A stretch of 64,000 bases of DNA from Gaiellales bacterium. Its GTDB lineage: Bacteria; Actinomycetota; Thermoleophilia; Gaiellales; F1-60-MAGs149. Made by a program: the position numbers and the translations under genes. The notes under the pieces are model-generated. The model did no database searches. It saw nothing but the letters and a program-made list of their open reading frames with translations, and had not been told where the DNA came from. The DNA is taken from contig JBKJIG010000044.1 in the NCBI GenBank assembly GCA_046598415.1, positions 852 to 64,851 on the forward strand. The letters are read 5' to 3'. Numbering within the stretch: position 1 is the first letter of the stretch; each line of letters starts with the position of its first letter. Positions 5,782 through 62,501 of the stretch are shown here, piece after piece.

Positions 5782-5789
5782 GCACTGCG

Positions 5790-11397: not shown

Positions 11398-11399
11398 GG

Positions 11400-13381: not shown

Positions 13382-13390
13382 GGCTGCAGG

Positions 13391-14329: not shown

Positions 14330-14345
14330 GCCACCGGCGGGGCCG

Positions 14346-15212: not shown

Positions 15213-15263
15213 GGCGCCGAACCGTAGTGCGCCTGCCCGGAGCGGAGTGGTACCGTCCGCGCC

Positions 15264-27691: not shown

Positions 27692-27755
27692 CGTCTTGCT
27701 CCTCTGCGTTCGAATACCCACGGAATTGTCACCGCGACGCCCCTACGATGGTGCC

Positions 27756-28610: not shown

Positions 28611-28670
28611 CGCGTCGGAGGTCGTCGTCACAATCGCCCGCGGCCACGACCGACCCGGTCGGTGCGTGCA

Positions 28671-28826
28671 ATGATCGCCTGGCTCCGTGACGAGCACGGC
28701 CTCGACCGTCGCGACGCCTACATGCTCTGTAGCCTTTCCGGCGACCTCAAGATCATCGAGATCGTGGCCATGGGCATGGGGAAGGTCGCGATGACGATGC
28801 CGCTGGGTTTGTTCGACAAGTCGTAG
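28671..28826 (+). pseudogene. C-terminal fragment (51 aa) of an acetamidase/formamidase-family gene
   Basis: MIAWLRDEHGLDRRDAYMLCSLSGDLKIIEIVAMGMGKVAMTMPLGLFDKS matches the extreme C-terminus of FmdA/AmdA proteins (..wL....gl.r.dAy.L.S..gdl.i.eiv.....v....p..if). No upstream catalytic part exists; an in-frame stop lies at 28608-28610. Confidence 0.55.
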
Positions 28827-28843
28827 AAGGGGAGGAAAGCGGG

Positions 28844-30355
28844 ATGGCACAGACGTCCGAGGAGGGCAAGGCGCTATCGACCGCGAGCGGCATCGAGATG
28901 CGCTCGATCGACTGGGTGCCGCACGAGGAGCGCCACGGCGAGGTGTGGCACCTCGGCGGGGTCTGGTTCTCGGGCAACGCGGAGCTCACGACGACGGCCA
29001 CGGGCGTGCTCTGCATCTCGCTCGGCGGCAACCTGATCTGGACCCTGGTCGCGATGCTGATCGGGACGCTGTTCGGCACGTTCTTCACGGCGTTCCACTC
29101 GGCCCAGGGTCCCCAGCTGGGACTACCGCAGATGATCCAGTCCCGCGCGCAGTTCGGCTACCTCGGCGTGGCCGTGCTGGTGCTGCCGTTCATGGTCTTC
29201 AACTATGCCGGCTACAACGTCTTCAACGGCCTGCTCGCCGCCGGCGCGCTGGAGAACGTGGTCGGCGGCGACATCAAGATCTGGCTCGTCGTCGTCTCCG
29301 TCGTTGCGGTCCTGGCGGCGATCTGGGGCTACGACCTGATCCACCTATCGCAGCGGTGGCTCACCTACGCCTTCATCATCTTCTTCGGCGTGTACACGAT
29401 CGGCGTCCTCGCGACGATCGGCTTCCCGGCGGGTTCCTGGGATCTGAACGGCTTCCAGACGACGCCGTTCATCGCGTCGTTCGCCCTGACGGTCTCGTAC
29501 CAGATCGGCTGGGCGCCGTACGTGTCGGACTACTCGCGCTACCTGCCGGCCAGCGCCGGCGTGAAGAGCACCTTCCTGTGGACCTACTGGCCGCTGGTGG
29601 TCGCCGGCTTCTGGATGTTCGCGATGGGCGCCATCATCGCGGCGCCGATCGCCGACCAGGCCCCTGGGACGATCGATGCGATCCGGGCGACCGGCGACGA
29701 CATCTTCGGCAGCTTCGGCGCGATCGTGCTGCTGCTCTCGGTGCCCGCGCTCGTGCTGATCATCGCCATGAACATGTACGGCGGTGGTTTGATCCTGATC
29801 TCGATGGCGGACTCGTTCAAGAAGGTCACGCCCGCACTGTGGCACCGCATCGCGAGCATCTTCGCGATCGCCATCACGTCGCTCGTGTTCGCCTTCTACG
29901 CGACGTCGAACGGCGACTTCCTCGGGTACTACAACAACCTGATCGTCCTGTTGCTGTACTTCTTCGCGCCGTGGACGGCCGTCAACCTGGTCGACTACTT
30001 CATCGTCCGCAAGGGCCACTACGCCATTCGCGAGATCTTCAACCCCGACGGCATCTACGGCCGCTGGGGCTGGTACGGGATCATCGCCTACCTGGCCGGG
30101 TTCGTCGCGATGATTCCGTTCATGCTCGTCGGGACGGCCGACACCAAGTTCGAGTGGTGGATCGGACCGATCGCGAAGAGCCTCGACTACACCGATATCT
30201 CCGTGTTCATCGGCATCCCGGTGTCCTCGATCGTCTACCTGTTCCTCGCCCGGCGGCTCGACCTGGAGAAGGAGCGCCAGCTCGAGGCGGCGGAGGGTGG
30301 CATGACGTTCTCCGAGCTCGAGCACGACGTGCAGGAGGACACGGGCCGAATCTAG
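28844..30355 (+). CDS. NCS1-family nucleobase/hydantoin/cytosine-type cation symporter
   Basis: ORF 28844..30355, preceded by a strong RBS (AAGGGGAGGAAAGCGGG then ATG). 12 TM. Motifs: QLGLPQMIQSRAQFGY and GWAPYVSDYSRYLP, typical of the purine-cytosine/hydantoin permease family. Confidence 0.9.
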   Translation: MAQTSEEGKALSTASGIEMRSIDWVPHEERHGEVWHLGGVWFSGNAELTTTATGVLCISLGGNLIWTLVAMLIGTLFGTFFTAFHSAQGPQLGLPQMIQSRAQFGYLGVAVLVLPFMVFNYAGYNVFNGLLAAGALENVVGGDIKIWLVVVSVVAVLAAIWGYDLIHLSQRWLTYAFIIFFGVYTIGVLATIGFPAGSWDLNGFQTTPFIASFALTVSYQIGWAPYVSDYSRYLPASAGVKSTFLWTYWPLVVAGFWMFAMGAIIAAPIADQAPGTIDAIRATGDDIFGSFGAIVLLLSVPALVLIIAMNMYGGGLILISMADSFKKVTPALWHRIASIFAIAITSLVFAFYATSNGDFLGYYNNLIVLLLYFFAPWTAVNLVDYFIVRKGHYAIREIFNPDGIYGRWGWYGIIAYLAGFVAMIPFMLVGTADTKFEWWIGPIAKSLDYTDISVFIGIPVSSIVYLFLARRLDLEKERQLEAAEGGMTFSELEHDVQEDTGRI

Positions 30356-30365
30356 CGATCCGGAG

Positions 30366-30401
30366 GGAAGTTCGCGGGCACCGGGATGCCCGCGAACTTC
30401 C
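30366..30401. terminator. Strong bidirectional hairpin between NCS1 permease and convergent amidase
   Basis: Perfect 15-bp inverted repeat GGAAGTTCGCGGGCA / TGCCCGCGAACTTCC with a 6-nt loop, 11 nt after the permease stop and 17 nt after the amidase stop. Confidence 0.65.
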
Positions 30402-30417
30402 GCCTCGGAACCGGCTG

Positions 30418-31974
30418 TCAGACGGCGGGCTCGGTCTCCACGACGAGCTCCCCGTCCGCCGGGCTGTACGCGCGGAGCACGGTCGTGACACCGTCGGCGC
30501 CGCGCACCCGCATCCCTGCGCGCAGCTGCTCGCGGGGAGTGTCCGCGGGCACCTCGGTGGCGTCGCCCGACGACGCGAGCGGCGGTCGCGGCCACGGTGC
30601 GATGCGCTCCCAGGCGGCCGCCGCGCGCAGCACGGTCGCGTCGCCGAGCCGGCGGCCGGAGAGCTGCAGCCCGACGGGCATGCCCTCCTCGGCGGCGCCC
30701 ATCGGGATGCTGATCGCGGGTGCGCCCGTGAGGTTCGCCGGGTAGCAGAAGTGGCACCAGTCGTCGAAGTGGTCGCCGATCGGCTGCCCTTCGATGGATG
30801 GCGGACCGGTCGTGCCGTGCCGGAAGGCGACGACCTCCATCGCGGGCGTCAGGAACAGGTCGTAGCGCTCCATGAAGCGGCCGAACGCGGAGGCGTAGGC
30901 GCCCTGCTCGTTGCGTGCCAGCGCGTACTCCGTCCCCGCGTAGCCGCTGCCGGCCTCGATCAGCTCGCGGGTGTCGTCACCGATCAGGCCGGTGGCGAGC
31001 AGCGGGCCCTCCGACGCGAGGTTGTCGACGCAGGCGATGGTGTTCCACGTCTCGATCGGGTTCGGGAGTCCCGGGTCGTCCTCGACCATCTCGGCGCCGA
31101 GCGAGCGGAACCGCTCCACGGCAGCGCGGAACGTCGCCCGGACGCCCGGATCGACGCGGAGGTAGCCGAGGTCCTCGGAGTAGGCGATCCGCAGGCCGGT
31201 CAGGTCGCCGTTCGCCTGCCCGGCGGCGGCAAGGTCGTCCGCGAGGTTCGGGAGGGACGTCGGATCGAGGGGATCGGGCCCGGCCATCACCGCGGTCATC
31301 AGCGCGGTGTCGGCGACGGTGAACGCGAGCGGACCGAGGTGCGTCATGGTGTACCAGCCGGGCCACTGCGGCTCGCGCGGCACCACGCCGAACGTCGCCT
31401 TGAAGCCGGCCACGCCGCACAGGGAGGCGGGGATGCGGATCGAGCCGCCGCCGTCGGAGCCGATCGCGAGCGGCACCATCCCCGCGGCCACGGCCGCGCC
31501 GGCGCCGCCGGAGGACCCGCCGGGCACACGGCCCGGATCCCACGGGTTCGATGTCCGTCCGTAGAGCTCGTTCTCGGCGATGCCGCGGTAGCAGAACTCC
31601 GGGATGTTCGTCCGGCCGACCACGATCGCGCCGGCGTCGAGCAGGCGGACGAGGAGGGTCGCGGTCGCCTCCGGCCGGAAGCCGAGCAGGGCTCGCGATC
31701 CGTCGGTGGTCTCGATGCCCTCCTCCCACACCACGTCCTTGACCGCGATCGGCACGCCGGCCAGCGGACCCGGATCCTCACCGGCGGCGACGCGCGCGTC
31801 GATGGCGGCTGCGGCTGCGCGCGCCGCGTTGGGCCGCACCTCGCAGAAGGCGTTCAACGTGCCGTTGAGCCGCGCGATGCGCTCGAGCGAATCCTCGATC
31901 ACGTCGGCGGCCGTGCGTCGGCCGGCGCGCACGTCCGCGGCGATCTCGATGGCGGTGGCGATCCGGTCGCTCAT
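30418..31974 (-). CDS. Amidase-signature (AS) family amidase with ~50-aa C-terminal extension
   Basis: ATG at 31974 (MSDRIATAIE) has an ATGA overlap with the upstream amidase stop. AS motif GGSSGGAGAAVAAGMVPLAIGSDGGGSIRIPA, plus PIAVKD. Confidence 0.9.
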   Translation of the reverse strand: MSDRIATAIEIAADVRAGRRTAADVIEDSLERIARLNGTLNAFCEVRPNAARAAAAAIDARVAAGEDPGPLAGVPIAVKDVVWEEGIETTDGSRALLGFRPEATATLLVRLLDAGAIVVGRTNIPEFCYRGIAENELYGRTSNPWDPGRVPGGSSGGAGAAVAAGMVPLAIGSDGGGSIRIPASLCGVAGFKATFGVVPREPQWPGWYTMTHLGPLAFTVADTALMTAVMAGPDPLDPTSLPNLADDLAAAGQANGDLTGLRIAYSEDLGYLRVDPGVRATFRAAVERFRSLGAEMVEDDPGLPNPIETWNTIACVDNLASEGPLLATGLIGDDTRELIEAGSGYAGTEYALARNEQGAYASAFGRFMERYDLFLTPAMEVVAFRHGTTGPPSIEGQPIGDHFDDWCHFCYPANLTGAPAISIPMGAAEEGMPVGLQLSGRRLGDATVLRAAAAWERIAPWPRPPLASSGDATEVPADTPREQLRAGMRVRGADGVTTVLRAYSPADGELVVETEPAV

Positions 31975-33374
31975 GCGTACTCCCTCGGTGGAACGGGCCA
32001 TGGTTGTGCGTGCTCGAATGCCGCCGCGACCCGGATGACGAGATCCTCCCGACCCGGAGCCGCGACGACCATCACGCCGACCGGCCGGCCCGCGGCGGTG
32101 ACGCCGCCCGGCATCGAGGCGGTCGGCTGCGTGCCGAGGTTCCACGGCGAGGAGAACGGCATGAACGACATCCAGCCGGGTTCCACGTCAACCCCGCCGA
32201 TGCGACTCGGCGGCTGGCCGAGCGGGAACGCGGGCGTGGCCGTCACAGGGGTGATCAGCACGTCGTAATGCGCGAAGAAGTCGTCGAGCCCAGACCGGAA
32301 CCGCCACAGTCTCGCCATCAGCCCGACGTGCTCCTCGGCCGTCAGCTGCGGATAGCGCGAGGTCTCCTCGAGGCTCTCCGGGTAGAGATCGTCCGGCTCC
32401 AGGACGGGCAGGGCGCTGCGGCGAGTGTCGACGCCGAAGATCGGGAAGTAGAGCTCCATCGGGTGCTCGACCTGCGGCGCGGCCTCATCGACCTCGGCGC
32501 CCAGGGTCGCAACCGTGCGGACCGCCGCCTCCGTGATCGCCCGCACCTCGTCGTCGACCGGGAACCAGTCGAGAGTCGCGCTCCAGGCCACGCGCAGCCC
32601 CTTCAGCGGCGCCGTGCCGTCGGCGCCGGCGATCGCCGCCGCCAGGTCGGGCAGCGGGTCGCGGCGGGCCATCGGGTCGCGCGCGTCGTGGCCGGCCATC
32701 ACCTCGAGCAGGGCTGCCGCGTCGGCGACGGTCGCGGCGATCGGCCCGTGCGTCAGGAAGAGCATGGAGTCGTCGGGAATCGGCCACGTCGGGATGCGCC
32801 CCAATGTCGGCTTGATGCCGAACACGCCGCACATCGACGACGGCGCGGTGATCGATCCGGCCGAGTCGGTGCCGGTCGCCCCCGGCACCAGACCGGCGCC
32901 GACGGCCGAGGCCGATCCGCCGCTCGATCCGCCGCTGGTCAGCGACGGGTCGGCGGGGTTGCGGGTATCGGGCCCGAGCCGGTTCTTGGTCTCTCCGAGC
33001 AGGCCGAGCGCCGGAGTGTTGGTCTTGCCGACGATGACGGCGCCCGCCGCCCGCAGCCGCGCGACGAGGATGCAGTCCTCGTCCGGCACGTTGTCGCGGA
33101 ACGCGAGCGCCCCGTAGGTGGTGCGCAGCCCTGCGGTCTCGTGCAGGTCCTTGACGCCGATCGGCACGCCCAGGAGCGGGGCGGTCTCACCGACAGCCAG
33201 CCGCCGGTCGGCGGCGTCCGCCGCCGCCAGCGCCCCCTCCGGATCGAGCGTCACGAACGTGCCGAGATCGGCCCTCCGCTCGATCGCGGCCAGCGTCGCG
33301 GTGACGGCCTCGCGGCTGGAGACCTGCCGCTCGGCCAGGGACGTGCGGAGTCCGATCAGACCATCTCGTCGCAT
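31971..33374 (-). CDS. Amidase-signature (AS) family amidase
   Basis: ATG at 33374 (MRRDGLIGLRTS) inside ORF 31971..33512. Motifs: GVPIGVKD and GGSSGGSASAVGAGLVPGATGTDSAGSITAPS. Confidence 0.9.
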   Translation of the reverse strand: MRRDGLIGLRTSLAERQVSSREAVTATLAAIERRADLGTFVTLDPEGALAAADAADRRLAVGETAPLLGVPIGVKDLHETAGLRTTYGALAFRDNVPDEDCILVARLRAAGAVIVGKTNTPALGLLGETKNRLGPDTRNPADPSLTSGGSSGGSASAVGAGLVPGATGTDSAGSITAPSSMCGVFGIKPTLGRIPTWPIPDDSMLFLTHGPIAATVADAAALLEVMAGHDARDPMARRDPLPDLAAAIAGADGTAPLKGLRVAWSATLDWFPVDDEVRAITEAAVRTVATLGAEVDEAAPQVEHPMELYFPIFGVDTRRSALPVLEPDDLYPESLEETSRYPQLTAEEHVGLMARLWRFRSGLDDFFAHYDVLITPVTATPAFPLGQPPSRIGGVDVEPGWMSFMPFSSPWNLGTQPTASMPGGVTAAGRPVGVMVVAAPGREDLVIRVAAAFEHAQPWPVPPREYA

Positions 33375-33499
33375 CGGCCCGATCGTAGCGCCGACGCCAT
33401 GCAGCGCCTGCCGGGTACCGCGGGCGACCCGCGCCGGGTATCGGCGAGGTGTATGGCACGCAAACGGCAAGGCCCGAGGCGATGCGGAACGCGCGCTGT

Positions 33500-33716
33500 G
33501 GGGTCTGACCAAGCGAGCAGGCCGAGCACAGCCGTGCCGCGCGCGGGCGTCAGAAGCGCCGGGGTCAGACCCCGAAAGTGGCGTTTCGGGGGTCAGACCC
33601 CGCGCACGAGAGGCGCGCGGAAGACGCGTGGATCGCGCGACCGGTGCGGGTCCGCGCGTGATTCGGCACGGTGCGCGTCGCGCCCGGCACGCGCGAATTG
33701 TCTGACCAAGGTCAGG
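33500..33716 (+). repeat. Dispersed palindromic intergenic repeat, copy B (composite)
   Basis: Partial GGGGTCTGACC at 33500-33510, then GGGGTCAGACCCC (33561-33573), a 15-nt spacer, and GGGGTCAGACCCC (33589-33601). Followed by the conserved flank GAGGCGCGCGGAAGACGCGTGGATCGCGCGACCGGTGCGGG ... GGCACGGTGCGCG ... GGCACGCGCGAA, and a small palindrome TCTGACCAAGGTCAG. Confidence 0.8.
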
Positions 33717-40298: not shown

Positions 40299-40739
40299 AT
40301 GCGCGAGGAGATCGGACCGCCCCTGCTGCTCTCGAACGGCACGCCCGTGCCGCGCCGGCTGCTGCGCATGTCCGCCGTGACGTCGCCCGGCCCCGGTGGC
40401 CAGCACGTCAACCGGTCGAACACCGCCGTCGAGCTGCGGGTCTCGGTCGACGACCTGCCGCTGTCGGCCGAGCAGCTCGCCCTCCTGCGCGAGCGCCTGG
40501 CCGCCCGCATCACGAAGTCGGACGAGCTGCGCATCGAGTCGTCCGATCACCGATCGCAGTGGCGCAATCGGCGGACGGCCGAGCAGCGGCTGATCGCGAT
40601 GATCGACGCGGCGCTGGTGATGGCGCCGGAGCGCACGCCGACGCGCCCGTCGCGCGCCGCGCTGGCTCGGCGTCGCGCCGACCGCGAACGCGCCCGGGCC
40701 AGCCGGGCGCAGCGCCGCCGGCCGGGGCGCGACGACTAG
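40299..40739 (+). CDS. arfB: Alternative ribosome-rescue factor ArfB (peptidyl-tRNA hydrolase, RF-1 domain)
   Basis: ATG at 40299 (MREEIGPP) inside ORF 40191..40739. GGQ motif in SPGPGGQHVNRSNTAVELR and a basic C-terminal tail. About 146 aa, typical for ArfB. Confidence 0.85.
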   Translation: MREEIGPPLLLSNGTPVPRRLLRMSAVTSPGPGGQHVNRSNTAVELRVSVDDLPLSAEQLALLRERLAARITKSDELRIESSDHRSQWRNRRTAEQRLIAMIDAALVMAPERTPTRPSRAALARRRADRERARASRAQRRRPGRDD

Positions 40740-41923
40740 CGGAGGGCCTCCTGGAATTCGGCATCGGCCAGCGCCGTCTCCAGGATCCGCAGGATCGTGC
40801 CCGGTCCGCCGCGGAGCGGGTTGATGCGGATCGCCCAGTGCTCGAGGCCGGGCGCGGCCTTCAGGAACGTGCTCGTCAGGTAGGTGAACAGCGGCAGGAA
40901 CTCGAACTGCGCCTCCTCGCCGACCGACTGGCTGGGCGAGCCGCTGCGCCAGGCCGACTGGAGAAACGGGACGGCGACGGGTCGTTCGAAGACGAGCACG
41001 ACGCAGCGGACGCCGGGCTGCGCCGCGTACGCACGGGCGAGACCGGGCAGGCTGCTGCCGGCACGAATCCGCTCGTTGATCTGCGCGACGGCCGCGGTGA
41101 CCGCCGCGTCCTGCACGGCCAGCGCGACGGGGGCCGTTACCAGAGCGCGCAGGGCAGCCATCGCCTGCGGGCCCTGCACCTGACAGCCGGCCGAGGAGAG
41201 GTCGCGGCGAATCTGTGCGACCGTCTCGGCGCCGCCCAGCACGACCCCGATCGGGTCGGGGGCCAGCAGCTTGAACAGCGACAGCGCCGAGGCGTCCGCG
41301 CCCAGCTGCACGCCGATGCGAGCGGCGCGCATGCCGGCGTAGTTGTCGTCGACCAGGATCCGCACGGTCGGCCCGGCGGTCGCCTGGATCAGCTCGATCG
41401 TCTGGCCGAGGTCGTAGCAGTCGCCGAGCTGCTGCGGCACGTGCTGCAGGTAGACCGTGGCCGGCGGGCGCTCGCGCAGGCTCCGCTCGAGCGCGCCGGC
41501 ATCGTTGAAGTCGGCGTAGGCGATGTCGAGGCCCATGTGGCGCATCGCCGGCAGCGTCGTCTTGTACGGGGGGGCGCCGTGCAGCAGGATGCGGCTGCCG
41601 GGGGCGGTCGACGCGTTCAGCATCGCGCGGATCGCACCGCTGCCCGCGCCCGGCACCAGCACCGCCGCGCAGGCGTCGAAGTACCGAGCCAGCACCTTCT
41701 CGACCAGAGCCGTCGCGCGCGGCCGGCCGCCGCCGCCGAAGCCGACCGTGGCGAGCTCGCGCACCTGCCCGTAGTCCTCGGTGAACACTGCGTCGGAGCC
41801 CATCACCTGCTGGGCGATGTCGACCAGCTTGAACTGCGCCGTGATCGCATCGTCGAGCGACATCTGCCCGCGGACGACCGTCGAGTCCCACTGTCGCAGG
41901 AGGTCGTGCAGGTCGCCGCTCAT
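40736..41923 (-). CDS. yhfS: YhfS-like PLP-dependent (SelA/aminotransferase-fold) enzyme
   Basis: ORF 40736..41923. GAGSGAIRAM, DDNYAGMRAARIGVQLGADASALSLFKLLAPDPIGVVLG (Lys in SLFKLL) and the C-terminal EHWAIRINPLRGGPGTILRILE agree with my recollection of E. coli YhfS. ATGA overlap with the upstream PHP gene. Confidence 0.8.
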   Translation of the reverse strand: MSGDLHDLLRQWDSTVVRGQMSLDDAITAQFKLVDIAQQVMGSDAVFTEDYGQVRELATVGFGGGGRPRATALVEKVLARYFDACAAVLVPGAGSGAIRAMLNASTAPGSRILLHGAPPYKTTLPAMRHMGLDIAYADFNDAGALERSLRERPPATVYLQHVPQQLGDCYDLGQTIELIQATAGPTVRILVDDNYAGMRAARIGVQLGADASALSLFKLLAPDPIGVVLGGAETVAQIRRDLSSAGCQVQGPQAMAALRALVTAPVALAVQDAAVTAAVAQINERIRAGSSLPGLARAYAAQPGVRCVVLVFERPVAVPFLQSAWRSGSPSQSVGEEAQFEFLPLFTYLTSTFLKAAPGLEHWAIRINPLRGGPGTILRILETALADAEFQEALR

Positions 41924-43203
41924 GGGCGGCGCGCGCGCTTGCGCATGACCTCGACCTCGGCCCAGGTCCGCGTGTTGACGATGTCGGCCGGGTTCGCCCA
42001 GGCGCGCCGCGCGACCGTGACGCCGTACCGGATGTTCGCGAGCGTGCCGACCTCGTGTGCGTCGGTCGAGATCACGAGCGGCACACCGGCCTGGCGGGCG
42101 GCCCGCGCGTTGCGCGCCGACAGATCGAGCCGCTCCGGGTTCGAGTTGATCTCGAGGAACGTGCCGTGCTCGGCGCAGGCGGCGATCAGCGCGGCGATGT
42201 CGGTCGCCGCCGGCGACCGGTGGCTCAGGTGCCGGCCGGTCGGATGGCCGACCACGTCGACCAGTGGGTGGGACGCCGCCGCCACCATCTTGGCCGTCGC
42301 CCGGATGGCGTTCTGGCGCAGCTCGGTGTGGGGGGAGGCGACCACCCAGTCCAGCTCGGCCAGCACGTCGTCGGGGTAGTCGAGCGAGCCGTCGCGGAGG
42401 ATGTCGACCTCGGTGCCGGCCAGCAGCGTGAAGCCCTCGGGCGCGAGCCTCGCGGCGACCTCGCGGATGGCCGCGACGTGCTCGCGCAGCTGCCCGACGT
42501 CGAGGCCGATGCCGGGCTCGAGCGAGTTCACGTTCGGCGTGTGCTCGGTGATCGCGAGATAGCTGTAGCCGCGCGCCAGCGCCGCGCGCGCCATCTCCTC
42601 GATGCTGTGCACGCCGTCGGAGGCCGTCGTGTGGGAGTGCAGGTCGCCCCGGATGTCGCCGACCGTGACCAGGTCCGTCAGCTCGCCGGCGCGGGCGGCA
42701 TCGAGCTCGCCGGTGCCTTCGCGCAGCTCCGGCGGCAGGTACGGGTGGCCGAGGCGCTCGTACAGCTCGGCCTCGCTCGTCGGCGCCGCGCCGCGCGATG
42801 CGCCCGCCGCCAGCGCGCGGTTGTGCGCGGGCGAGCCTGTGAGCCGCTGCAGCGCCGCCACGTACCTGGACGGCACGACTGCGTGCAGCGTCACGCGCAT
42901 GCCGTCGACGGTGAGCACCGTCGCGCGCGACGTGGTGGCGCCGAGGACGGTGCCGACGGCAGCGGACGCCGCGAAGGCGGCGACGATCGCGGCCGGCACC
43001 TCGGCGGCGACCAGCAGCTCGATCGCGTCGAAGCGCTCGTGCCGGCGCCGCAGCGTGCCGACCGCGGAGCCGTCGGTGCAGCCGGGTTGCGATGTCAGCC
43101 AGGCGAGGAGGCGGTCGGCGAGCTCGGTCGCCTCGTCGAGTAGAACCCGGCGGCCGCGCGAGTCTTGACGCGAGTTTTGCACCCGGCCATTATGTACTGA
43201 CAT
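41920..43203 (-). CDS. PolX-derived PHP-domain phosphoesterase (N-terminally truncated, degenerate palm)
   Basis: ORF 41920..43203. Residual Pol-beta palm GTLRRRHERFDAIELLV (DxD degraded to D-A-I-E), located ~45 aa from the N-terminus instead of ~180. Complete PHP domain: GDLHSHTTASDG, ITEHTP, STDAHE. The start could also be GTG at 43182. Confidence 0.8.
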   Translation of the reverse strand: MSVHNGRVQNSRQDSRGRRVLLDEATELADRLLAWLTSQPGCTDGSAVGTLRRRHERFDAIELLVAAEVPAAIVAAFAASAAVGTVLGATTSRATVLTVDGMRVTLHAVVPSRYVAALQRLTGSPAHNRALAAGASRGAAPTSEAELYERLGHPYLPPELREGTGELDAARAGELTDLVTVGDIRGDLHSHTTASDGVHSIEEMARAALARGYSYLAITEHTPNVNSLEPGIGLDVGQLREHVAAIREVAARLAPEGFTLLAGTEVDILRDGSLDYPDDVLAELDWVVASPHTELRQNAIRATAKMVAAASHPLVDVVGHPTGRHLSHRSPAATDIAALIAACAEHGTFLEINSNPERLDLSARNARAARQAGVPLVISTDAHEVGTLANIRYGVTVARRAWANPADIVNTRTWAEVEVMRKRARRP

Positions 43204-43595
43204 TACGACATGGTGGTAGCCAGATCCCCCGCGACGCGTTTACAGCACGCCTCGATCTCCTCGAGGACTCCGGCCAGGTCTCGGCGGTCGCGCGACAGCA
43301 GACGCTCGACTTCGTCGCCGCCGTCGAGGCGGGCTTCACCGTCGAACTCGACGAGGAGAACGGGGCGATGCTCGTCACGCACCTCGCGATGGCGCTGACG
43401 CGTACCGAGCGCCGGGCGCCGCTGCTCGAGGAGCCGCCGGCCGTGATCGTGTCGGAGGCGCACGCCAATCCAGCCGAGCTGCTGTTCGTGCGCGAGCGGC
43501 TCGACGCGTACGGCGCGGTGCTCGGCGAGGCCCTGCCAGAGTCGGAACTCGTGTTCATGACGGCCCACCTCTGCTCGGTCACGCTGCCCGGATGA
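43197..43595 (+). CDS. yhfY: Stand-alone PRD-domain protein (YhfY-like)
   Basis: Frame of ORF 43092..43595. PRD signature with two His about 60 residues apart (MLVTHLAMALTR and VFMTAHLCSV). No ATG or GTG lies in frame near the 5' end. CTG at 43197 is provisional. An out-of-frame ATG at 43210 followed by a C5 run is an alternative. Confidence 0.6.
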   Translation: MTLRHGGSQIPRDAFTARLDLLEDSGQVSAVARQQTLDFVAAVEAGFTVELDEENGAMLVTHLAMALTRTERRAPLLEEPPAVIVSEAHANPAELLFVRERLDAYGAVLGEALPESELVFMTAHLCSVTLPG

Positions 43596-43608
43596 ACGGG
43601 CGCCGCTG

Positions 43609-44775
43609 ATGTTCCTCGCGGCGACGCGGCGGCGCAATCCCGCCCTCATCTCGGCCGCGGCGCGGCTGCATGCGGAAGGTCGCGTCCCCGCCGGCAGCTA
43701 CGTCGTCGACATCGACGCCGTCGGCGCGAACGCCCGGCTGGTGTCCGGCGCGGCGCGGCAGCTCGGCCTGGTCTGCTGGCAGATGACGAAGCAGTTCGGC
43801 CGCAACCCGCTGGTCGGGCAGGCCGTCGCGGCGAACGGGGTGGACGGCGTCGTGGCGGTCGAGATAGCCGAGGCGCGCGTCCTGCACGCGCACGGGCTGC
43901 GTATCGGGCACGTCGGCCACCTCGTGCAGGTGCCGCGGCACCAGCTGGCCGAGGCGCTCTCGTTCGCACCCGACCACCTGACGGTCTTCGGCGTCGACCA
44001 GGCCGTCGCGGTGGGTGCGGCCGCCCGCGCCGCGGGCGTCGTCCAGCAGGTGCTGCTCCGCGTCGTGAAGCCGGGCGACCGGTTCTTCGAGGCGCAGCGC
44101 GGCGGCGTCCGCCTGGACGACGCGCTGACCGCCGCCCGTGCCATCGATGCCATCGACGGCGTCGAGCTCGCCGGCGTCACGAGCTTTCCCTGCGTGGCGT
44201 GGGACGAGGAGCGCGGCGACGTCGTCGCCACGCCGAACCTGCAGACGCTCGTGTCGGCGCGCGACACGCTGCGGGACGCGGGCTTCGCGGTGCCGGTGAT
44301 GAACGCCCCGGGGGTGACCTGCGTCGCGACGCTCGACATCGTCGCGGCGGCCGGTGCGACCCACGTCGAGCCCGGCAGCGCGCTCATCGGCGAGACGCCG
44401 TGGCACGCGGCCAACGACGCGAACGAGCGCCCGGCGATGGTGTACGTCACCGAGGTGACCCACGAGCTCGACGGTCGCGTCTACACGCTCGGCGGCGGCT
44501 TCTACGCGCGCTCACGCATGCGATCGGCGCTGGTGTTCGGCGACCGCGAGCCGGTGGAGGCGTCCGTGATCGAGCTGCCCGCGGCCGAGATCGACTACTA
44601 CGGCGCGCTGCAGATGCCGGCGGGCGAGCGCGCCGCGGTCGGCGCCACGGTCGTGTACGCCTTCCGCGCCCAGGCGTTCGTCAGCCGTGCAGCGGTCGCC
44701 GTCGTCGCGGGCGTCGAGAGCAGCGACCCGCAGGTGCTCGGCGTCTTCTCCCGTGACGGCTCGACGCTCCCGTGA
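43609..44775 (+). CDS. yhfX: YhfX-like fold-type-III PLP enzyme (alanine racemase N-terminal domain family)
   Basis: ORF 43609..44775. Candidate PLP lysine in WQMTKQFGRNP. Barrel plus C-terminal beta domain. Positioned as in the E. coli yhf locus. Confidence 0.75.
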   Translation: MFLAATRRRNPALISAAARLHAEGRVPAGSYVVDIDAVGANARLVSGAARQLGLVCWQMTKQFGRNPLVGQAVAANGVDGVVAVEIAEARVLHAHGLRIGHVGHLVQVPRHQLAEALSFAPDHLTVFGVDQAVAVGAAARAAGVVQQVLLRVVKPGDRFFEAQRGGVRLDDALTAARAIDAIDGVELAGVTSFPCVAWDEERGDVVATPNLQTLVSARDTLRDAGFAVPVMNAPGVTCVATLDIVAAAGATHVEPGSALIGETPWHAANDANERPAMVYVTEVTHELDGRVYTLGGGFYARSRMRSALVFGDREPVEASVIELPAAEIDYYGALQMPAGERAAVGATVVYAFRAQAFVSRAAVAVVAGVESSDPQVLGVFSRDGSTLP

Positions 44776-44845
44776 CGACCGGATACGGTGGCGGCAGCCG
44801 GGACGGCGGATGCAGGGTCGGGCGAGCGACTCGGGGAGGAGCGAG

Positions 44846-45211
44846 ATGATCAACGTGGTCGTGACCGGCATGGGCAAGGAGCGCATCGTGCAGCTGGTGC
44901 AGGAGGCCGGCGTCGGCCTCGTCGAGGCGAAGGCGAAGACCGACTTCGAGGCGGCGTCAGCCGTCAAGAGCGGCAAGGCCGACTACTACATCGGCGCCTG
45001 TCAGAGCGGTGCCGGCGGCGCGCTCGGCGTCGCGAACGCCATCCTCGGATCGTCCGAGGTCGTGCGCCTCTCGGGCGTCGGGAAAACGGCTGATCCGGCC
45101 GATGTGCGCGCCGCGGTGGCGGCGGGCAAGCGCGCGTTCGGCATCAGCTACAGCCAGATCGACGCCGTCGTGCCGGTGCTGGTCGGCGCGATCCTGGCCC
45201 AGGCCGAGTGA
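44846..45211 (+). CDS. yhfU: DUF2620 (YhfU-like) protein
   Basis: ATG at 44846 inside ORF 44687..45211, with RBS GGGGAGGAG just upstream. The central motif ADYYIGACQSGAGGALGVANAIL matches my recollection of the YhfU/DUF2620 hallmark (DYYIGAC.tGAGaAL). Confidence 0.8.
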   Translation: MINVVVTGMGKERIVQLVQEAGVGLVEAKAKTDFEAASAVKSGKADYYIGACQSGAGGALGVANAILGSSEVVRLSGVGKTADPADVRAAVAAGKRAFGISYSQIDAVVPVLVGAILAQAE

Positions 45212-45220
45212 TCTGAGCCG

Positions 45221-46489
45221 GTGCCGGACGAGGTCGTCAAGCTGCTGGTGGTCGGTGCGCTCGGCTCGGTGTCGGCGCTGGCCGCGCACCGCAACGTCGC
45301 GATCTACCACGACGGCCTGCGCACGTCGGTCGCCGACATCACCTCGGGCCTGAAGTCGCGGCGCGAGATGGCGTCCTACGCGTACACCATCTCGATTGGC
45401 TTCGTGGTGGCGTTCGCGCTGCCGTTCGCCCTCGCCAGCGGCATCCTGATCATCCACATGATCATGCTCGGCACCGACACGATCGGCGTGTGGAGCCGAC
45501 GCTCCGCCGAGTCGCTCGCGGGCGGCTTCGTCTGGGGCGTGTTCGCGGTCGGCGCGGTCGACCTGTTCGTGAAGGGCGTCCAGCACCTGCCGCTCGAGAC
45601 CACCGGTCGCGATCTGCTGTGGACGCCGCTCGTGTACTCGCTGCCGCTGCTCGGTGCCGCGGCGGCGGCCCAGGCGCACGGGTTTCGCGCCGGCGTCATC
45701 GCCACGCTCGCGACGGCCGCCATCTGGAGCGGCGCGTATGGGGTCTGGAATGCGGCCGATCCGGGGTCGGCCACGACGTTCGGCGCCGGTCTGATCGCGT
45801 TCTGCGTGATCATCGTCGCGCTCGTCCTCGCGGCGCTGCGCGAGCGAGCCGAGGACGAGACCGACCTGGGCTTCTTCGACGACAACATCCGGCGGATCCG
45901 CGGCAACTGGGCCTACCTGTTGCCGATCGCGGCGCTGATCGCCGTCACCGCCTCGTCCGGCTGGGTCGGCGGCGAGCCCGTGCAGGTGGCGCTGATGAGC
46001 TCCGACCACCTCGAGGGGGCGGCCGTCGTCGCGGTGTTCTCGTCCATCGGCTTCGTGCCGCTGCAGGGCATGACCGGCCTGGTCAGCGGCGTGTGGAACC
46101 AGCACGGCTACCCCGACTGGTTCCTCGGCGCGGGCTACCTGACGTCCAACCGCGCGATCGCCGCCGCCGCCGGCGCGGCGCTGATGGGCGTCGAGCTGCT
46201 GACGTTGCGCCGCGTCGCGTGGCTGCTGACGGCGCGCCCCGGCATCACCACGCTCGGCAGCGCGGTGCGCGAGTCGCTCGAGCTGGTGCCGACGCTGGCG
46301 ATGCTGGCCGGTGGCGTGCTCGCCGCGACCGCGGTCGGCGGGCCGGCCGGTGCCTGCGCGGTGATCGCCGTCTACCTGCTGAACGACAAGCGCGGGCGCC
46401 CGATCATGCCCCTCGCGGCACCGGTGATCGGCTACCTGCTGGTGCTCGTGATGACGGGGCTCGCCCACGAGGCCGGAGTGTTCACATGA
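45221..46489 (+). CDS. yhfT: YhfT-like polytopic membrane protein (putative transporter)
   Basis: ORF 45221..46489. About 10-11 TM and 422 aa, directly after the yhfU homolog as in E. coli. Assignment rests mostly on size, topology and position. Confidence 0.7.
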   Translation: MPDEVVKLLVVGALGSVSALAAHRNVAIYHDGLRTSVADITSGLKSRREMASYAYTISIGFVVAFALPFALASGILIIHMIMLGTDTIGVWSRRSAESLAGGFVWGVFAVGAVDLFVKGVQHLPLETTGRDLLWTPLVYSLPLLGAAAAAQAHGFRAGVIATLATAAIWSGAYGVWNAADPGSATTFGAGLIAFCVIIVALVLAALRERAEDETDLGFFDDNIRRIRGNWAYLLPIAALIAVTASSGWVGGEPVQVALMSSDHLEGAAVVAVFSSIGFVPLQGMTGLVSGVWNQHGYPDWFLGAGYLTSNRAIAAAAGAALMGVELLTLRRVAWLLTARPGITTLGSAVRESLELVPTLAMLAGGVLAATAVGGPAGACAVIAVYLLNDKRGRPIMPLAAPVIGYLLVLVMTGLAHEAGVFT

Positions 46490-47253
46490 GCGACCCGATC
46501 GAGCAGGCGATCGACCCGTCGTCGCGGCTGCCGCTGTACGCGCAGCTGGAGCAGATCCTCGAGCAGCAGCTGACGTCGGGCGAGCTGAAGGCCGGCGACA
46601 TGCTCCCGACCGAGGCGCAGCTGTGCGCGCAGTTCGGCATCTCGCGCCCCGTCGTGCGCCAGGCGATCAGCGGCTTCGTCGCGCGCGGCCAGCTGTACCG
46701 GCTGCGCGGCAAGGGCACCTTCGTTTCGGGAGCACCGCTGGCGGAGCGGCTGCTGCGGCCCACGCTCGGCTTCTTCGACGACCTCGCGGCTGCCGGGCTG
46801 GAGGTCTCCAACGACCTCGTCGGCATCGAGATCGTGGCGGCCCAGGCCGCGCTGGCCGAGTCGCTGGCGCTCGCGCCCGGCGGCAGTTGCGTCCGCATCG
46901 AGCGACTGCGCCGCATCGACGGCGAGGTGGTCGCGTTCATGCGCTCGTTCATCCCGGAGTCGCTGCACCCGAACCTGCTGCAGCGCCTCGAGCACTGCGA
47001 CTTCACGCACGTCTCCCTGCCGCGCCTGCTGCAGCAGACGATCGGGATCCGCCCGTCCTCCGGCCACCGGTGGGTGCAGGCCGTCGTGGCCGACGCCGAG
47101 ATCGGCGGGCATCTGGGCATCGCCGTCGGCGAGGCGCTGCTCTACGTCGAGTCGATCGAGGACGACGAGCGCGGCCGGCGCATCGAGTACTCGCAGGCGT
47201 GGCACCGCGGCGATCGCACCCGGCTCGAGCTCGAGTCGTCGCGGACGGGCTAG
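46486..47253 (+). CDS. GntR/HutC-family transcriptional regulator (HTH plus UTRA)
   Basis: ATG at 46486 has an ATGA overlap with the yhfT-like stop. HTH: LPTEAQLCAQFGISRPVVRQAISGFVARGQLYRLRGKGTFV. UTRA-like C-terminal half. Confidence 0.9.
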   Translation: MSDPIEQAIDPSSRLPLYAQLEQILEQQLTSGELKAGDMLPTEAQLCAQFGISRPVVRQAISGFVARGQLYRLRGKGTFVSGAPLAERLLRPTLGFFDDLAAAGLEVSNDLVGIEIVAAQAALAESLALAPGGSCVRIERLRRIDGEVVAFMRSFIPESLHPNLLQRLEHCDFTHVSLPRLLQQTIGIRPSSGHRWVQAVVADAEIGGHLGIAVGEALLYVESIEDDERGRRIEYSQAWHRGDRTRLELESSRTG

Positions 47254-49190
47254 GCGAGCGCGGCGCCGACCGCGTCGCGGGCGGCCGCCGCCGAGCCGGC
47301 GGCCAGTGCCAGGCTGCTCAGGCGCCGGCACTCGTCCAGCGTCACGCGGCCGACCTGGGATCGCACGGCGGCGATCGATCCGGCCGCCATCGACAGCGAC
47401 GAGATGCCGAGACCGACCAGGACGACGGCGAGCGCCGGGTCGCCCGCAGCCTCGCCGCACACACCCACCGGCCGGCCGTTCTCCTCGCCTGCGCGCGCGG
47501 CCATCTCGACCAGCCGCAGCAGCGCCGGCTGCCACGGGCTCTGCAGACCGGCCAGTGCCGCGATGCCGCGGTCGGCTGCGAAGGTGTACTGCGCCAGGTC
47601 GTTCGTTCCGATACTGGCGAAGTCGACCCGTGCGAGCACGTCGCCGGCGGTCAGGGCGGCCGCGGGGATCTCGATCATGACGCCGGCCTTCGCGATCCCC
47701 GCGTCGTGAGCGGTCTCGGCGAACCAGCGCGCCTCGTCGGCGGTCGCGACCATCGGTGCCAGCGCCCAGATCTCGGCGTCGCCCGCGGCGCTGACGGCGG
47801 CGATGGCGGCAAGCTGGTCGGCGAGCACGTCGCCGGCGGCGCGGAGGGCGCGCAGGCCGCGCACGCCGAGCGCCGGGTTGTCCTCGGCCGCACTGCGCAC
47901 GTACGGCAGCGGCTTGTCGGCGCCGGCGTCGAGCAGGCGGATGACCACGCGCGTGCCGGCGAACGCCTGCGCGACCCGGCCGTAGGCGGCGATCTGCTCG
48001 TCCACCGTCGGTGCCTGGCCGCGTCCCTCGAAGCAGAACTCGGTGCGCAGCAGCCCGACGCCCTCGGCGCCCGCGACCCGCGCGGCAGCGGCACGATCGG
48101 GGCTGCCGACGTTCGCCAGGATCGCCACGCGATGGCCGTCGGCCGTGCCGCCCGGCTCGCCCGACGGCTTCGCCGTGCGCGCCCGCCGCGCGAGGATGGC
48201 CGCGAGGCGCTCCGCGTCGGGCGAGACCACGACGGTGCCCTCGGTGGCGAAGACCGCGACGTGGTGGCCGGTCTCGAGCGCGCCCGCACCGGGGCAGGCC
48301 ACCACGGCGGGGATGCCGAGCTCGCGCGCCAGGATCGCCATGTGGCCGGTCGGGCCGCCACCGACGGTCACGATTGCGAGCACCACGGCGGGGTCGAGCA
48401 GCGCGGCGTCGGCGGGCGCGAGGTCGTCGGCGACGAGGATGTACGGGTCGGTCCGGTCGGGCAGGCCGGGCAGCGGCAGGCCGAGGCAGATCGCGATCGC
48501 CCGGTCACGCACGTCCTCGATGTCGGCAACCCGCTGGGCGAGGTCTCTGCGGACATCCGCGAGCTGGTCGCGGAACGGCCGGATCGCCTCGGTCAGGGCC
48601 TCGGTCGCCGATCGGCCCGTGCGCGTGAGCCGCGCGACATCGTCGTGCAGCGCGGGATCACCGGCCATCGTCGCGCCGGCCTCGAGCACGGCCCGCCCGG
48701 CCGCCGTTGCGGTTGCTCGGCGTGCCCGGAAGTCGGTGGCGACGGCGTCCAGCGCAGCGAGCGCTCGGCGCTCGGCGACAACGGCATCGTCGGCCGGCCG
48801 GGCCGGGCGCGGTCCGGGGCGGGCGGCCATCCGCACCACGACGCCGGCGGCCGTGCCTCGCGACGCCGAGATGCCGACGAGGACACCATCGAGGGCGGCG
48901 GTGCTGGCGAACTCCTGTCCGGCGGCGTCGAGGAGCTCGAGCAGCTGGTCGAGCAGCAGCGCATCGGTTGCGGCGTCGCCGTCGGCGGGGTCAAGCAGCA
49001 GCTCGACGACCCCGCTGCCGTGAATGCCGAGCCCGAGCACGCGCAGCACGCTGCGGCCATCGACGCTCTGGCCGTCGGACTTGCCGACGCGCACCGGCCG
49101 TCCCGAGGCGACGATCGCCGCCACGAGGTCGGCAGCGGGCCGGGCATGAAGTCCTGATCCGATCGGGAGCGTGCCGCGGCGCGTGATCAC
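47250..49190 (-). CDS. ptsI: HPr-Enzyme I fusion (PEP-dependent phosphotransferase, multiphosphoryl transfer protein)
   Basis: GTG at 49190 places the HPr active His at position 15 (VITRRGTLPIGSGLHARPAADL). EI motifs: GGGPTGHMAILARELGIPAVV, GLLRTEF, GTNDLAQY, VCGEAAGDP. The listed ORF 47250..49319 has an Arg/His-rich extension that I reject. Confidence 0.9.
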   Translation of the reverse strand: MITRRGTLPIGSGLHARPAADLVAAIVASGRPVRVGKSDGQSVDGRSVLRVLGLGIHGSGVVELLLDPADGDAATDALLLDQLLELLDAAGQEFASTAALDGVLVGISASRGTAAGVVVRMAARPGPRPARPADDAVVAERRALAALDAVATDFRARRATATAAGRAVLEAGATMAGDPALHDDVARLTRTGRSATEALTEAIRPFRDQLADVRRDLAQRVADIEDVRDRAIAICLGLPLPGLPDRTDPYILVADDLAPADAALLDPAVVLAIVTVGGGPTGHMAILARELGIPAVVACPGAGALETGHHVAVFATEGTVVVSPDAERLAAILARRARTAKPSGEPGGTADGHRVAILANVGSPDRAAAARVAGAEGVGLLRTEFCFEGRGQAPTVDEQIAAYGRVAQAFAGTRVVIRLLDAGADKPLPYVRSAAEDNPALGVRGLRALRAAGDVLADQLAAIAAVSAAGDAEIWALAPMVATADEARWFAETAHDAGIAKAGVMIEIPAAALTAGDVLARVDFASIGTNDLAQYTFAADRGIAALAGLQSPWQPALLRLVEMAARAGEENGRPVGVCGEAAGDPALAVVLVGLGISSLSMAAGSIAAVRSQVGRVTLDECRRLSSLALAAGSAAAARDAVGAALA

Positions 49191-49385
49191 AGCCGAAGTA
49201 TGAGCACGGGGTTGCGATCGCAAACGCCCGGCGTGGTCCGCACCCTCCGTCGTCGTGCCGCCGCGTACCCACCGTTCCGCGTGGTGATGGCGAATGCGCC
49301 GTCCCCCTCGATGCGCCATGTCACGTCCGCCGTCACGCCGGCGGCGTCCGATGCCTCCGGGCGCATCGTCGAAGCGGCCTCGAGC

Positions 49386-49398
49386 GGGGTCAGACCCC
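49386..49398 (+). repeat. Dispersed palindromic repeat, copy D (single, degenerate)
   Basis: GGGGTCAGACCCC followed by GAGAACGCCGTTGAAGGGTGGCGGTC. This aligns with the spacer and second half-site of copies A-C but has diverged. Confidence 0.6.
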
Positions 49399-49414
49399 GA
49401 GAACGCCGTTGAAG

Positions 49415-49450
49415 GGTGGCGGTCCGCCGCGGATCCGGCAGACCGCCACC
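49415..49450. terminator. Hairpin downstream of the STAS gene and upstream of the HPr-EI gene
   Basis: Perfect 10-bp inverted repeat GGTGGCGGTC / GACCGCCACC with a 16-nt loop containing CCGCGG and GGATCC palindromes. Confidence 0.4.
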
Positions 49451-49584
49451 GTGAGAACGCGCCGCTCCCGGCACGTAGCGCAAGGCCTGTCTACCCTGGC
49501 TGCGTTGACGATAAACGTCCTGCAAATGCGGCTCTCTTGAGCCATGCCCGACGGTGTGCCCGGCGGCTCCTCGCGGACCCGTCG

Positions 49585-50100
49585 CTAGCGCGCGGAGACG
49601 CGCTCGCTCGACGGCGTGGGCTCGACCCAGCCGGACGCGGGCTCGGGCTCGGCGGGCCGCTCGCGCGGCGGCACGAGCGCGGGCGGCCGGATCGTGCGCC
49701 AGCCGTCGTTGGGCGGACGCGACGGATCACGCAGGGCGGCGAGGGCGGCACCTCGTGACGGGAACAGCGTGAAGAGCAGGTCGGCCTCGACGGCGCTCAG
49801 CATGTGTTGGACAGGCGCGCTCGCGCCGGCGATCACGACGGACGCGTTGGTGATCGGCTTGAGGCCCGCGAGGCCCCGCACGATCCCGCGGTACGAGTGG
49901 CAATCGAAGAAGGTCGTCGCGGTGAGGTCGAGGACCAGGTGGTGGTGCCCGCAGCGCACCGCGTATTCGACCGCCTCCGCCAGATTGTTGTCGGCGTAGC
50001 GATCGAGGTCGCCGCGGAGAACGATCATGGCGACGCGCCCGAACACCTCGATGGTGATGGGCCTTTCGGGCGGCATTTCGAATGGCGACGGCGCAGGCAA
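49585..50100 (-). CDS. STAS-domain protein (anti-sigma-factor antagonist-like)
   Basis: ORF 49585..50100. The segment VAMIVLRGDLDRYADNNLAEAVEYAVRCGHHHLVLDLTATTFFDCHSYRGIVRGL fits the SpoIIAA/STAS fold pattern. Pro-rich C-terminal tail. Confidence 0.8.
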   Translation of the reverse strand: MPAPSPFEMPPERPITIEVFGRVAMIVLRGDLDRYADNNLAEAVEYAVRCGHHHLVLDLTATTFFDCHSYRGIVRGLAGLKPITNASVVIAGASAPVQHMLSAVEADLLFTLFPSRGAALAALRDPSRPPNDGWRTIRPPALVPPRERPAEPEPASGWVEPTPSSERVSAR

Positions 50101-62394: not shown

Positions 62395-62501
62395 CGACGC
62401 GATGATATCCCGGTGCCGGGGCAGCTACCTCGTCCTGCGGGGCGAACCGCGGGTCCTCCCTGCGGATGAGGGGAAGGGTCACGGTCACTACGATCTCATC
62501 C

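Follow-up and report, generated by a model that had tools for sequence, protein, structure and literature searches.

The window analysed here is a 64-kb stretch of DNA from a Gaiellales bacterium, an uncultured soil actinomycete (assembly GCA_046598415.1, contig JBKJIG010000044.1). Its G+C content is 70-75%, and the relative that matches it best is a contig from an uncultured Actinomycetes metagenome-assembled genome (MAG). Between positions 40736 and 49190 the window carries eight genes that combine relatives of the E. coli yhf cluster with a fusion of HPr and Enzyme I (EI), components of the phosphoenolpyruvate (PEP)-dependent phosphotransferase system (PTS). Genes were called from six-frame open reading frames (ORFs) together with Pfam searches, and all Pfam matches reported lie above the curated cut-offs. 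On the minus strand, a YhfS-like fold-type-I enzyme dependent on pyridoxal phosphate (PLP; 40736-41923; Pfam YhfS-like_C, E 1.6e-18, and a weak match to Aminotran_1_2) is translationally coupled, via an ATGA overlap at 41920-41923, to the gene for a predicted PolX-derived PHP-domain metal phosphoesterase (41920-43203; DNA_pol_B_thumb and PHP). Across a shared divergent control region (43165-43209), made up of a promoter-like site and a near-palindrome, the plus strand encodes a YhfY-like protein of ~123 amino acids (aa) with a single PTS regulation domain (PRD; ORF 43092-43595, likely 43224-43595), a YhfX-like fold-type-III PLP enzyme (43609-44775; Ala_racemase_N and YhfX-like_C), the small cytoplasmic protein YhfU (44849-45211; DUF2620, E 8e-32), the polytopic membrane protein YhfT, presumed to be a transporter (45221-46489; YhfT, E 2e-71), and a GntR/HutC-family regulator with a UTRA effector domain (46486-47253; GntR and UTRA), the last coupled to yhfT by a second ATGA overlap at 46486-46489. 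The HPr-EI fusion itself, 646 aa long (47250-49190, minus strand; PTS-HPr, PEP-utilisers_N, PEP-utilizers and PEP-utilizers_C), is convergent with the regulator gene, and the two stop codons overlap (CTAG, 47250-47253).

An earlier description made from the letters of the window, below called the sequence-only reading, had proposed these eight genes, their catalytic residues and both ATGA overlaps. All were found at the positions given there, and its domain assignments (YhfS, YhfT, YhfU, YhfX, PRD, HPr and PEP-utilizer) are confirmed by Pfam profile searches. None of the NCBIfam models matched the PRD, YhfT, YhfU or YhfX proteins of the window.

Kinship with the E. coli yhf cluster

As a reference we took the E. 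coli K-12 region yhfZ-yhfY-yhfX-yhfW-php-yhfU-yhfT-yhfS (b3376-b3383), which belongs to the conserved "y-gene" operons of that species, and compared its proteins with those of the window. Identities are 41% for YhfS, 40% for YhfX, 36% for YhfU, 31% for the PRD protein and YhfY, and 27% for YhfT, and YhfS-like_C, YhfT, DUF2620 and YhfX-like_C all score above cut-off in addition to the similarity to the E. coli proteins. By these comparisons yhfS, yhfT, yhfU, yhfX and yhfY of E. coli all have orthologues in the window, five genes in total, and we read the locus as the actinobacterial counterpart of a conserved yhfZYXW-php-yhfUTS cluster, equipped with its own HPr and EI. Both versions have YhfU and YhfT side by side and a PRD-only protein at the head of the operon. 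Unlike the E. coli cluster, the window version lacks php, yhfW and yhfZ, has instead the GntR/HutC regulator, the PolX-derived PHP phosphoesterase and the HPr-EI fusion, and carries a different paralogue type of YhfS on the opposite strand. The PRD protein might have been thought peculiar to the window version, but E. coli YhfY, annotated as a PRD-domain protein, is its orthologue, and it is therefore an ordinary member of the cluster. The window protein differs from its E. coli counterpart in keeping the second PRD histidine. What is new relative to the known cluster is the linked HPr-EI fusion, the PRD-only YhfY being already part of the E. coli version. A search of the literature on yhfS/T/U/W/X/Y/Z, DUF2620 and stand-alone PRD proteins found no functional study.

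Two E. coli yhf proteins, YhfX (4kbx) and YhfS (4j8l), have solved structures, both deposited as uncharacterised, and both are matched by their window counterparts (E 3.2e-88 and E 1.3e-68, respectively). The SLFK lysine motif is present in the window YhfS, which is 57-59% identical to the YhfS copy that lies directly upstream of YhfU in related loci L007, L008, L019 and L021. On this basis the window protein is best classed as a second YhfS paralogue type, distinct from the E. coli type. The E. coli type is found between YhfX and YhfU on a metagenome contig (L012, 633-1709) whose YhfT is 91% identical to that of the window, and is absent from this place in both the window and related locus L001.

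The sequence-only reading had called the PHP protein a PolX-derived esterase, a view borne out by its alignment. Residues 15-417 align with residues 153-565 of Thermus thermophilus PolX (E 1e-62), PF02811 scores above cut-off, and the protein retains all metal-binding motifs (HxH, EH, EVD, H, HP and DAH). It has no counterpart to the N-terminal ~150 residues of PolX or to its 8-kDa and fingers domains, and the palm acidic triad has degenerated to D-x-E with Thr replacing the third Asp. A role as a family X DNA polymerase was rejected, given that the alignment starts at PolX residue 153 and that the palm triad is incomplete; judged by these residues, the protein is a polymerase-dead but PHP-active derivative of PolX. 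In L001, L002 and the P0009 locus, too, its gene stands divergent to the one at the PRD position, whereas more distant yhf clusters lack it and carry php and/or YhfW instead.

The control region between the two divergent units contains the sole sigma-70-like site in 40500-49700 (TTGACG-17 nt-CATTAT, 43165-43193, plus strand), overlapped by the near-palindrome ATGTACTGACAT at 43192-43203, inside which lies the start codon of the PHP gene. L001 and L002, where proteins are 61-79% identical to those of the window, both keep the motif ATTATGTACTGACAT(T/C)ACGAC, and a variant of it occurs in L017. The motif is unique in the window: allowing up to 3 mismatches, no second copy was found, for example upstream of HPr-EI. 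No terminator-like sites were found in the cluster. In the three loci that were read (the window, L001 and L002) the compact divergent control region is common to the PHP gene and the PRD operon, and ATGTACTGACAT is a probable operator of the GntR/HutC regulator for both units, as far as its sequence and position can indicate. The best NCBIfam models for that regulator, PhnF and PRK11402, both fall below cut-off, and it is 29% identical to E. coli FrlR.

The HPr-EI fusion and its linkage to yhf clusters

When the fusion is translated from the GTG at 49190, the HPr histidine named in the sequence-only reading falls at position 15, in GLHARPA. Its EI part has His283 in GGGPTGH, a GTNDL motif and Cys578 in CGE; the domains PF05524, PF00391 and PF02896 are all above cut-off, and the protein scores 346.7 bits on TIGR01417 (PTS_I_fam) against a cut-off of 341.7. 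For the HPr domain, PF00381 gives 38.5 bits (cut-off 23) and NCBIfam TIGR01003 stays below cut-off (38.8 vs 47.9); the NCBIfam DhaM and PtsI models both match the fusion. Such fusions are rare among ~7,800 EI homologues, and in a neighbour-joining tree the yhf-linked ones group as a single clade within actinobacterial PtsI. The window protein resembles FryA/PtsA, FruB-type multiphosphoryl transfer proteins and DhaM in that it joins HPr and EI or EI-like domains with canonical histidines. Unlike these, it consists of HPr and EI only, with no EIIA domain, and whereas the known fusions serve recognisable Enzyme II (EII) components or DhaKL, it has neither an EII nor a Dha kinase nearby.

That no EII gene is visible in the 64 kb, as had been claimed from the letters, holds up: no PTS_EII family was found among the ~60 window ORFs scanned with Pfam, and the polytopic membrane ORFs other than YhfT all belong to AA_permease, EamA, NCS1, MMPL or sensor kinases. 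Pfam annotation likewise reveals no EII within 10 kb in L001, L002 or the P0009 locus, and tblastn searches with Fru, Asc and Gat EII components were negative. A PEP-driven relay without a linked EIIC permease has parallels in PTS-Ntr (EI-Ntr/NPr/EIIA-Ntr) and in the PTS-dependent dihydroxyacetone kinase, and the window relay would presumably serve in control or in the phosphorylation of something other than an imported sugar. It would differ from both in that its proposed terminal acceptor is the PRD protein rather than EIIA-Ntr or DhaM and in that it lies inside a catabolic cluster.

Whether the fusion stays with yhf genes in relatives had been put forward as a check, and it does: in all six members of the fusion clade for which genomic context is available, the fusion gene is convergent with a GntR/UTRA gene. 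The whole cluster (YhfT-YhfU-YhfX-PRD plus the divergent PHP gene) can be traced in four of the six, over 60-79% identity. Relatives of the fusion at 79%, 61% and 60% identity stand tail-to-tail with GntR-YhfT-DUF2620-(YhfS)-YhfX-PRD and the divergent PHP gene, while two further relatives, on short contigs, are tail-to-tail with GntR/UTRA followed by an aldo-keto reductase (AKR) gene or a cut gene. More remote loci were collected by scanning a genome collection with a YhfT alignment, which gave seven loci, all from MAGs, and by looking up further YhfT homologues, which gave six more; a scan of metagenomes for YhfT loci yielded five short contigs only. Four of the more distant clusters contain or adjoin unfused EI and HPr genes. 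In L006 (an Acidimicrobiaceae MAG) EI follows AKR and is itself followed by HPr; L009 (a Sporichthyaceae MAG) has HPr and DeoR genes in the cluster and EI 5 kb off; L010 (a Marmoricola MAG) has DeoR-HPr-EI in mid-cluster; and in the P0167 locus an EI gene comes after a DeoR gene at the cluster end. The EIs of these unfused loci fall in other branches of the neighbour-joining tree.

In total, EI/HPr genes lie within ~10 kb of the cluster in 8 of 15 loci. EI being normally a single-copy gene, this is far above chance, and the association is strong and has evolved repeatedly, with at least two to three independent origins, although it is not universal. All eight EI-linked clusters have a gene at the PRD position (six are PRD by sequence, two are presumed from position), and the three clusters without a PRD in the fetched region are all without EI. 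With those two presumed PRDs counted, the association of PRD with EI presence (8/0 vs 4/3) is not significant (Fisher p ~0.08). As a separate observation, pairs of hydantoinase A/B (oxoprolinase-type) genes adjoin two yhf clusters (L002, 5944-10004; L017, 13321-17330), and in L002 the start of HPr-EI overlaps the end of the hydantoinase B gene.

Could the neighbourhood nonetheless be fortuitous, with the HPr-EI and PHP genes unconnected to the yhf genes? The HPr-EI gene is convergent and not co-transcribed with them, and the operator-like motif does not recur upstream of it, as a chance arrangement would allow. The linkage in six of six clade members and its re-evolution with unfused genes speak against chance for the fusion, and the control region shared with the PRD operon in the window, L001 and L002, along with the divergent arrangement in the P0009 locus, does so for the PHP gene. 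We already disfavour a chance arrangement and give it very little credence.

A more serious contender is that the fusion is the organism's general PTS energy-coupling protein, serving ordinary EII permeases encoded elsewhere, and that its place beside the yhf cluster stems from regulatory cross-talk, YhfY reading the status of the general PTS like the PRD2 of LicT. In another MAG, a fructose PTS operon of canonical layout, DeoR-PfkB-EIIA-EIIBC, ends in a different HPr-EI fusion (P0033, 48% identical; L003, 6174-11989), and HPr-EI fusions have therefore arisen, or persist, in an ordinary PTS context too. EI/HPr is accompanied by a DeoR gene in L009, L010 and the P0167 locus, as in the usual actinobacterial pts layout (ptsI-fruR-fruK-ptsF-ptsH in Corynebacterium); the EIs of these three loci are not specifically related to the window EI; and 7 of the 15 clusters have no EI nearby. 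If the fusion were a general PTS component, however, we would not expect its clade to be strictly syntenic with GntR and yhf genes over 60-79% identity, nor EII genes to be missing within 10 kb in the fusion-clade loci and within the 64 kb of the window; and the DeoR-HPr-EI modules of L009 and L010 come without the usual fruK/fruA genes. On balance we think it unlikely that general PTS service accounts for the fusion.

The PRD-only protein YhfY

PRD is the sole domain detected in the ~123-aa window YhfY (PF00874, 26.2 bits vs a cut-off of 23), and its relatives are of similar size: a search of 1.8 billion representative proteins returned 107 clusters of YhfY-like proteins, nearly all of 115-140 aa. 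The sequence-only reading had described a protein without a nucleic-acid-binding domain that keeps both phosphorylatable histidines some 60 residues apart, and both points hold. The two residues, His53 and His115 when numbered from 43224, are spaced by 62 and align with LicT phosphorylation sites. A profile of the YhfY family matches the LicT structure 1tlv (E 5.5e-10) with both histidines on H100/H159 and H207/H269, and the register is confirmed by a match to the H207D/H269D mutant structure 1h99. Across an alignment of 98 family members the first histidine is invariant (98/98) and the second is present in 83. YhfY thus has the PRD fold of the LicT/BglG antiterminators and MtlR/LevR-type activators, from which it differs in having one PRD, no RNA- or DNA-binding domain and no EIIA- or EIIB-like domains. 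A role as a transcription regulator of the BglG/LicT or MtlR/LevR type was rejected, there being no nucleic-acid-binding or activator domain, and an Rfam scan of the window revealed no RAT-like antiterminator target or other RNA element. Apart from YhfY, nothing in the cluster can be recognised as a PTS target.

Note that the start of the PRD gene is anomalous. The ORF has no in-frame ATG, GTG or TTG between 43092 and 43371 (280 nt). We compared positions 43205-43230 of the window with 16040-16065 of L001 and 18075-18100 of L002 (minus strands in both). The L001 gene starts at an ATG that matches 43210 of the window, where the same ATG is out of frame by 2 extra bases (GCCAGATCCCCCGC in the window vs GCGATCCCGCGC in L001); in L002 the corresponding GTG likewise falls out of frame. 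All three loci retain an ATC that is in frame at 43224, YhfY family members begin within a few residues of this point, and the N-terminus of the protein is likely to lie near it.

YhfU, YhfT and the proposed relay

In every locus seen, YhfU is immediately followed by YhfT. PRD, DUF2620 and YhfT form three overlapping genes on a B. thuringiensis plasmid, and consecutive accession numbers suggest the same order in L. rhamnosus. The AlphaFold2 model of YhfU (predicted local distance difference test, pLDDT, 94) retrieves almost exclusively RpiB/LacAB structures among its top 25 Foldseek matches (template modelling score, TM, 0.65-0.75; E from 2e-4). An invariant cysteine, Cys51, sits in a C-x-S/T-G-x-G loop after strand 3, as in RpiB, and hhalign places C51/S53/G54/G56 on RpiB C66/T68/G69/G71, though the match is weak (E 0.025). 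YhfU gave no match to Pfam LacAB_rpiB, and a sequence-profile search of PDB with the YhfU alignment found no relative. Structurally, YhfU models as an RpiB/LacAB-type fold, with TM 0.70-0.75 to these sugar-phosphate isomerases and with its cysteine, at the end of strand 3, on RpiB C66 in that weak alignment. Unlike them it is ~30 residues shorter and always paired with the membrane protein YhfT, and no conserved counterparts of the phosphate-binding Arg/His of RpiB are seen in its alignment. The YhfT model (pLDDT 93) has no significant Foldseek match in PDB (best E 0.12, TM <= 0.24) and may represent a transporter fold without a solved representative. We also note a Logan contig (L022) with two YhfU-YhfT pairs (4395-6135 and 9633-11287; YhfT 28% and 45% identical to that of the window), alongside php (PTE), GntR, YhfS, YhfX, AKR and GH4 glycosidase genes.

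These two proteins bear on the possibility of non-canonical group translocation, in which the phosphate of the relay ends on the substrate, either because YhfY (through histidine), YhfU (through Cys51) and YhfT act as functional analogues of EIIA, EIIB and EIIC or because phosphorylated HPr or YhfY feeds a soluble phosphorylation step. Such a scheme would suit a window cluster that lacks a kinase while it and its relatives are full of sugar-phosphate enzyme types (RpiB/LacAB-fold YhfU, PHP or php as phosphoesterase/lactonase, the metalloenzyme YhfW, double-SIS proteins, ribulose-phosphate 3-epimerase, KDPG-type aldolase and GH4). It would also suit the constant YhfU-YhfT adjacency, the overlapping PRD-DUF2620-YhfT genes of the B. 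thuringiensis plasmid with their probable parallel in L. rhamnosus, and the invariant YhfU cysteine in its glycine-rich loop. There is, moreover, a precedent in BglG/BglF, where reversible phosphotransfer between PRD histidine and EIIB cysteine is established. The structural comparisons point the other way. YhfU has the fold of RpiB/LacAB, not of EIIB, and was rejected as an EIIB: its top 50 Foldseek matches contain none, its cysteine follows strand 3 rather than strand 1, and hhalign could align just 9 columns with UlaB. For YhfT there is no match to a solved EIIC (UlaA, ChbC, MalT, ManYZ) or to any other transporter, and its candidacy as a cryptic EIIC fell with the absence of EIIC among its Foldseek matches and an empty hhalign comparison with E. 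coli UlaA. The only apparent YhfU-YhfT fusion (P0172), considered as an EIIB-EIIC-like unit, proved to be a frameshifted, Arg-rich artefact. Finally, many related clusters have additional AA_permease or ATP-binding cassette (ABC) importers, and one has an FGGY kinase. Homology of YhfT and YhfU to known EII components is not supported, although they may be their functional analogues, and we consider group translocation rather improbable. That YhfY, YhfU and YhfT together make up a PEP-dependent phosphorylating uptake system of a class not recognised before is more doubtful still. Such a class would have a PRD-only histidine carrier in place of EIIA, an RpiB-fold cysteine protein in place of EIIB and a novel-fold YhfT in place of EIIC, and would explain both the sugar-phosphate enzymes of kinase-less yhf clusters and the private EI and HPr of the actinobacterial ones.

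As to the substrate, related clusters add enzyme genes for double-SIS proteins, ribulose-phosphate 3-epimerase, YhfW, php, AKR, KDPG-type aldolase, GH4 and amine oxidase, together with AA_permease or sugar ABC importers and DeoR regulators; the window cluster has no kinase, and the FGGY kinase is confined to one related locus. The E. coli yhf cluster adjoins frlABCDR, the fructoselysine genes. The window regulator is FrlR-like, at the 29% identity given above, and the double-SIS proteins, AA_permease genes and sugar-phosphate epimerases of related clusters recall frlABCDR and similar amino-sugar pathways. Unlike frlABCDR, the window cluster has no orthologue of FrlB, FrlD or FrlA. Because of these added genes and the FrlR/PhnF-like UTRA regulator, we infer a substrate of the amino-sugar-like or glycated amine type, processed in the form of its phosphate ester.

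The reading we favour, tentatively and at somewhat less than an even chance, is that a dedicated relay from PEP through EI and HPr to YhfY controls a transport and catabolism module for such an amino-sugar-like compound. The HPr-EI fusion would autophosphorylate from PEP on His283 of EI and hand the phosphoryl group on to His15 in the HPr domain of the same polypeptide, and from there the group would move to the invariant His53 of YhfY and probably also to His115. The phosphorylation state of YhfY would then set the activity of the module, the likeliest targets being the YhfU-YhfT membrane unit and/or the GntR/HutC repressor, which would control the two divergent operons from the promoter-overlapping ATGTACTGACAT. 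The module, comprising YhfT, RpiB-like YhfU, the PLP enzymes YhfX and YhfS and the PHP phosphoesterase, would import and degrade an amino-sugar-like or glycated amine compound, probably via a phosphorylated intermediate. The sequence-only reading had proposed a relay of this kind gating a two-PLP-enzyme pathway. The relay stands as the most economical reading, but a pathway of two PLP enzymes leaves the sugar-phosphate-type enzymes (RpiB-like YhfU, PHP/php, YhfW, SIS and Rpe), usually found without a kinase, unexplained. It may be that the relay also supplies the substrate's phosphate.

Several observations weigh against a dedicated relay. For this organism the negative result for EII covers the 64-kb window, and EII genes may lie elsewhere on its chromosome. 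In L006, L009 and L010 the EIs are 45-48% identical to the window EI, compared with 50-56% for ordinary actinobacterial PtsI, and could be those organisms' general PTS genes; furthermore, 7 of 15 related clusters have no EI within ~10 kb. YhfY has no output domain, the searched literature shows no characterised member of its family, and the E. coli protein has Asn at the second histidine position. Lastly, the anomalous start and frame of the window PRD gene may reflect a non-canonical start, an assembly error or N-terminal damage.

In enterobacteria and Firmicutes, EI and HPr are general housekeeping proteins, and any dependence of the yhf cluster on the PTS would be hidden. In several lineages of soil actinobacteria the cluster comes with its own EI and HPr, fused or separate, which would expose such a dependence and name the transfer from phosphorylated HPr to YhfY as the step to look at. 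Should the relay operate as proposed, it would provide a first function for a single-domain PRD family of ~100 sequence clusters and a new branch of the PTS that ends in a PRD protein instead of an EII, and the search for a substrate would narrow to phosphorylated amino-sugar-like compounds. The main use of the finding is that the orphan yhf operon becomes a testable PTS client.

Elsewhere in the window, 11400-16517 and 26870-33512 are rich in genes of C-N bond metabolism: first Aminotran_1_2, CN_hydrolase, a formamidase/acetamidase, an EamA exporter and a class-III aminotransferase, and further along a short-chain dehydrogenase/reductase (SDR), a second CN_hydrolase, an NCS1 permease and two tandem amidases. 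An 805-aa ORF at 9115-11532 has its AA_permease domain confined to residues 308-752, and the long N-terminal extension, rich in Arg, probably reflects a start called too far upstream. At 60309-63203 a LuxR-type response regulator has HisKA_3 sensor-kinase ORFs as neighbours, of which one carries DUF7134 at its N-terminus; the two kinase ORFs overlap each other and may represent a single gene with a frame problem.

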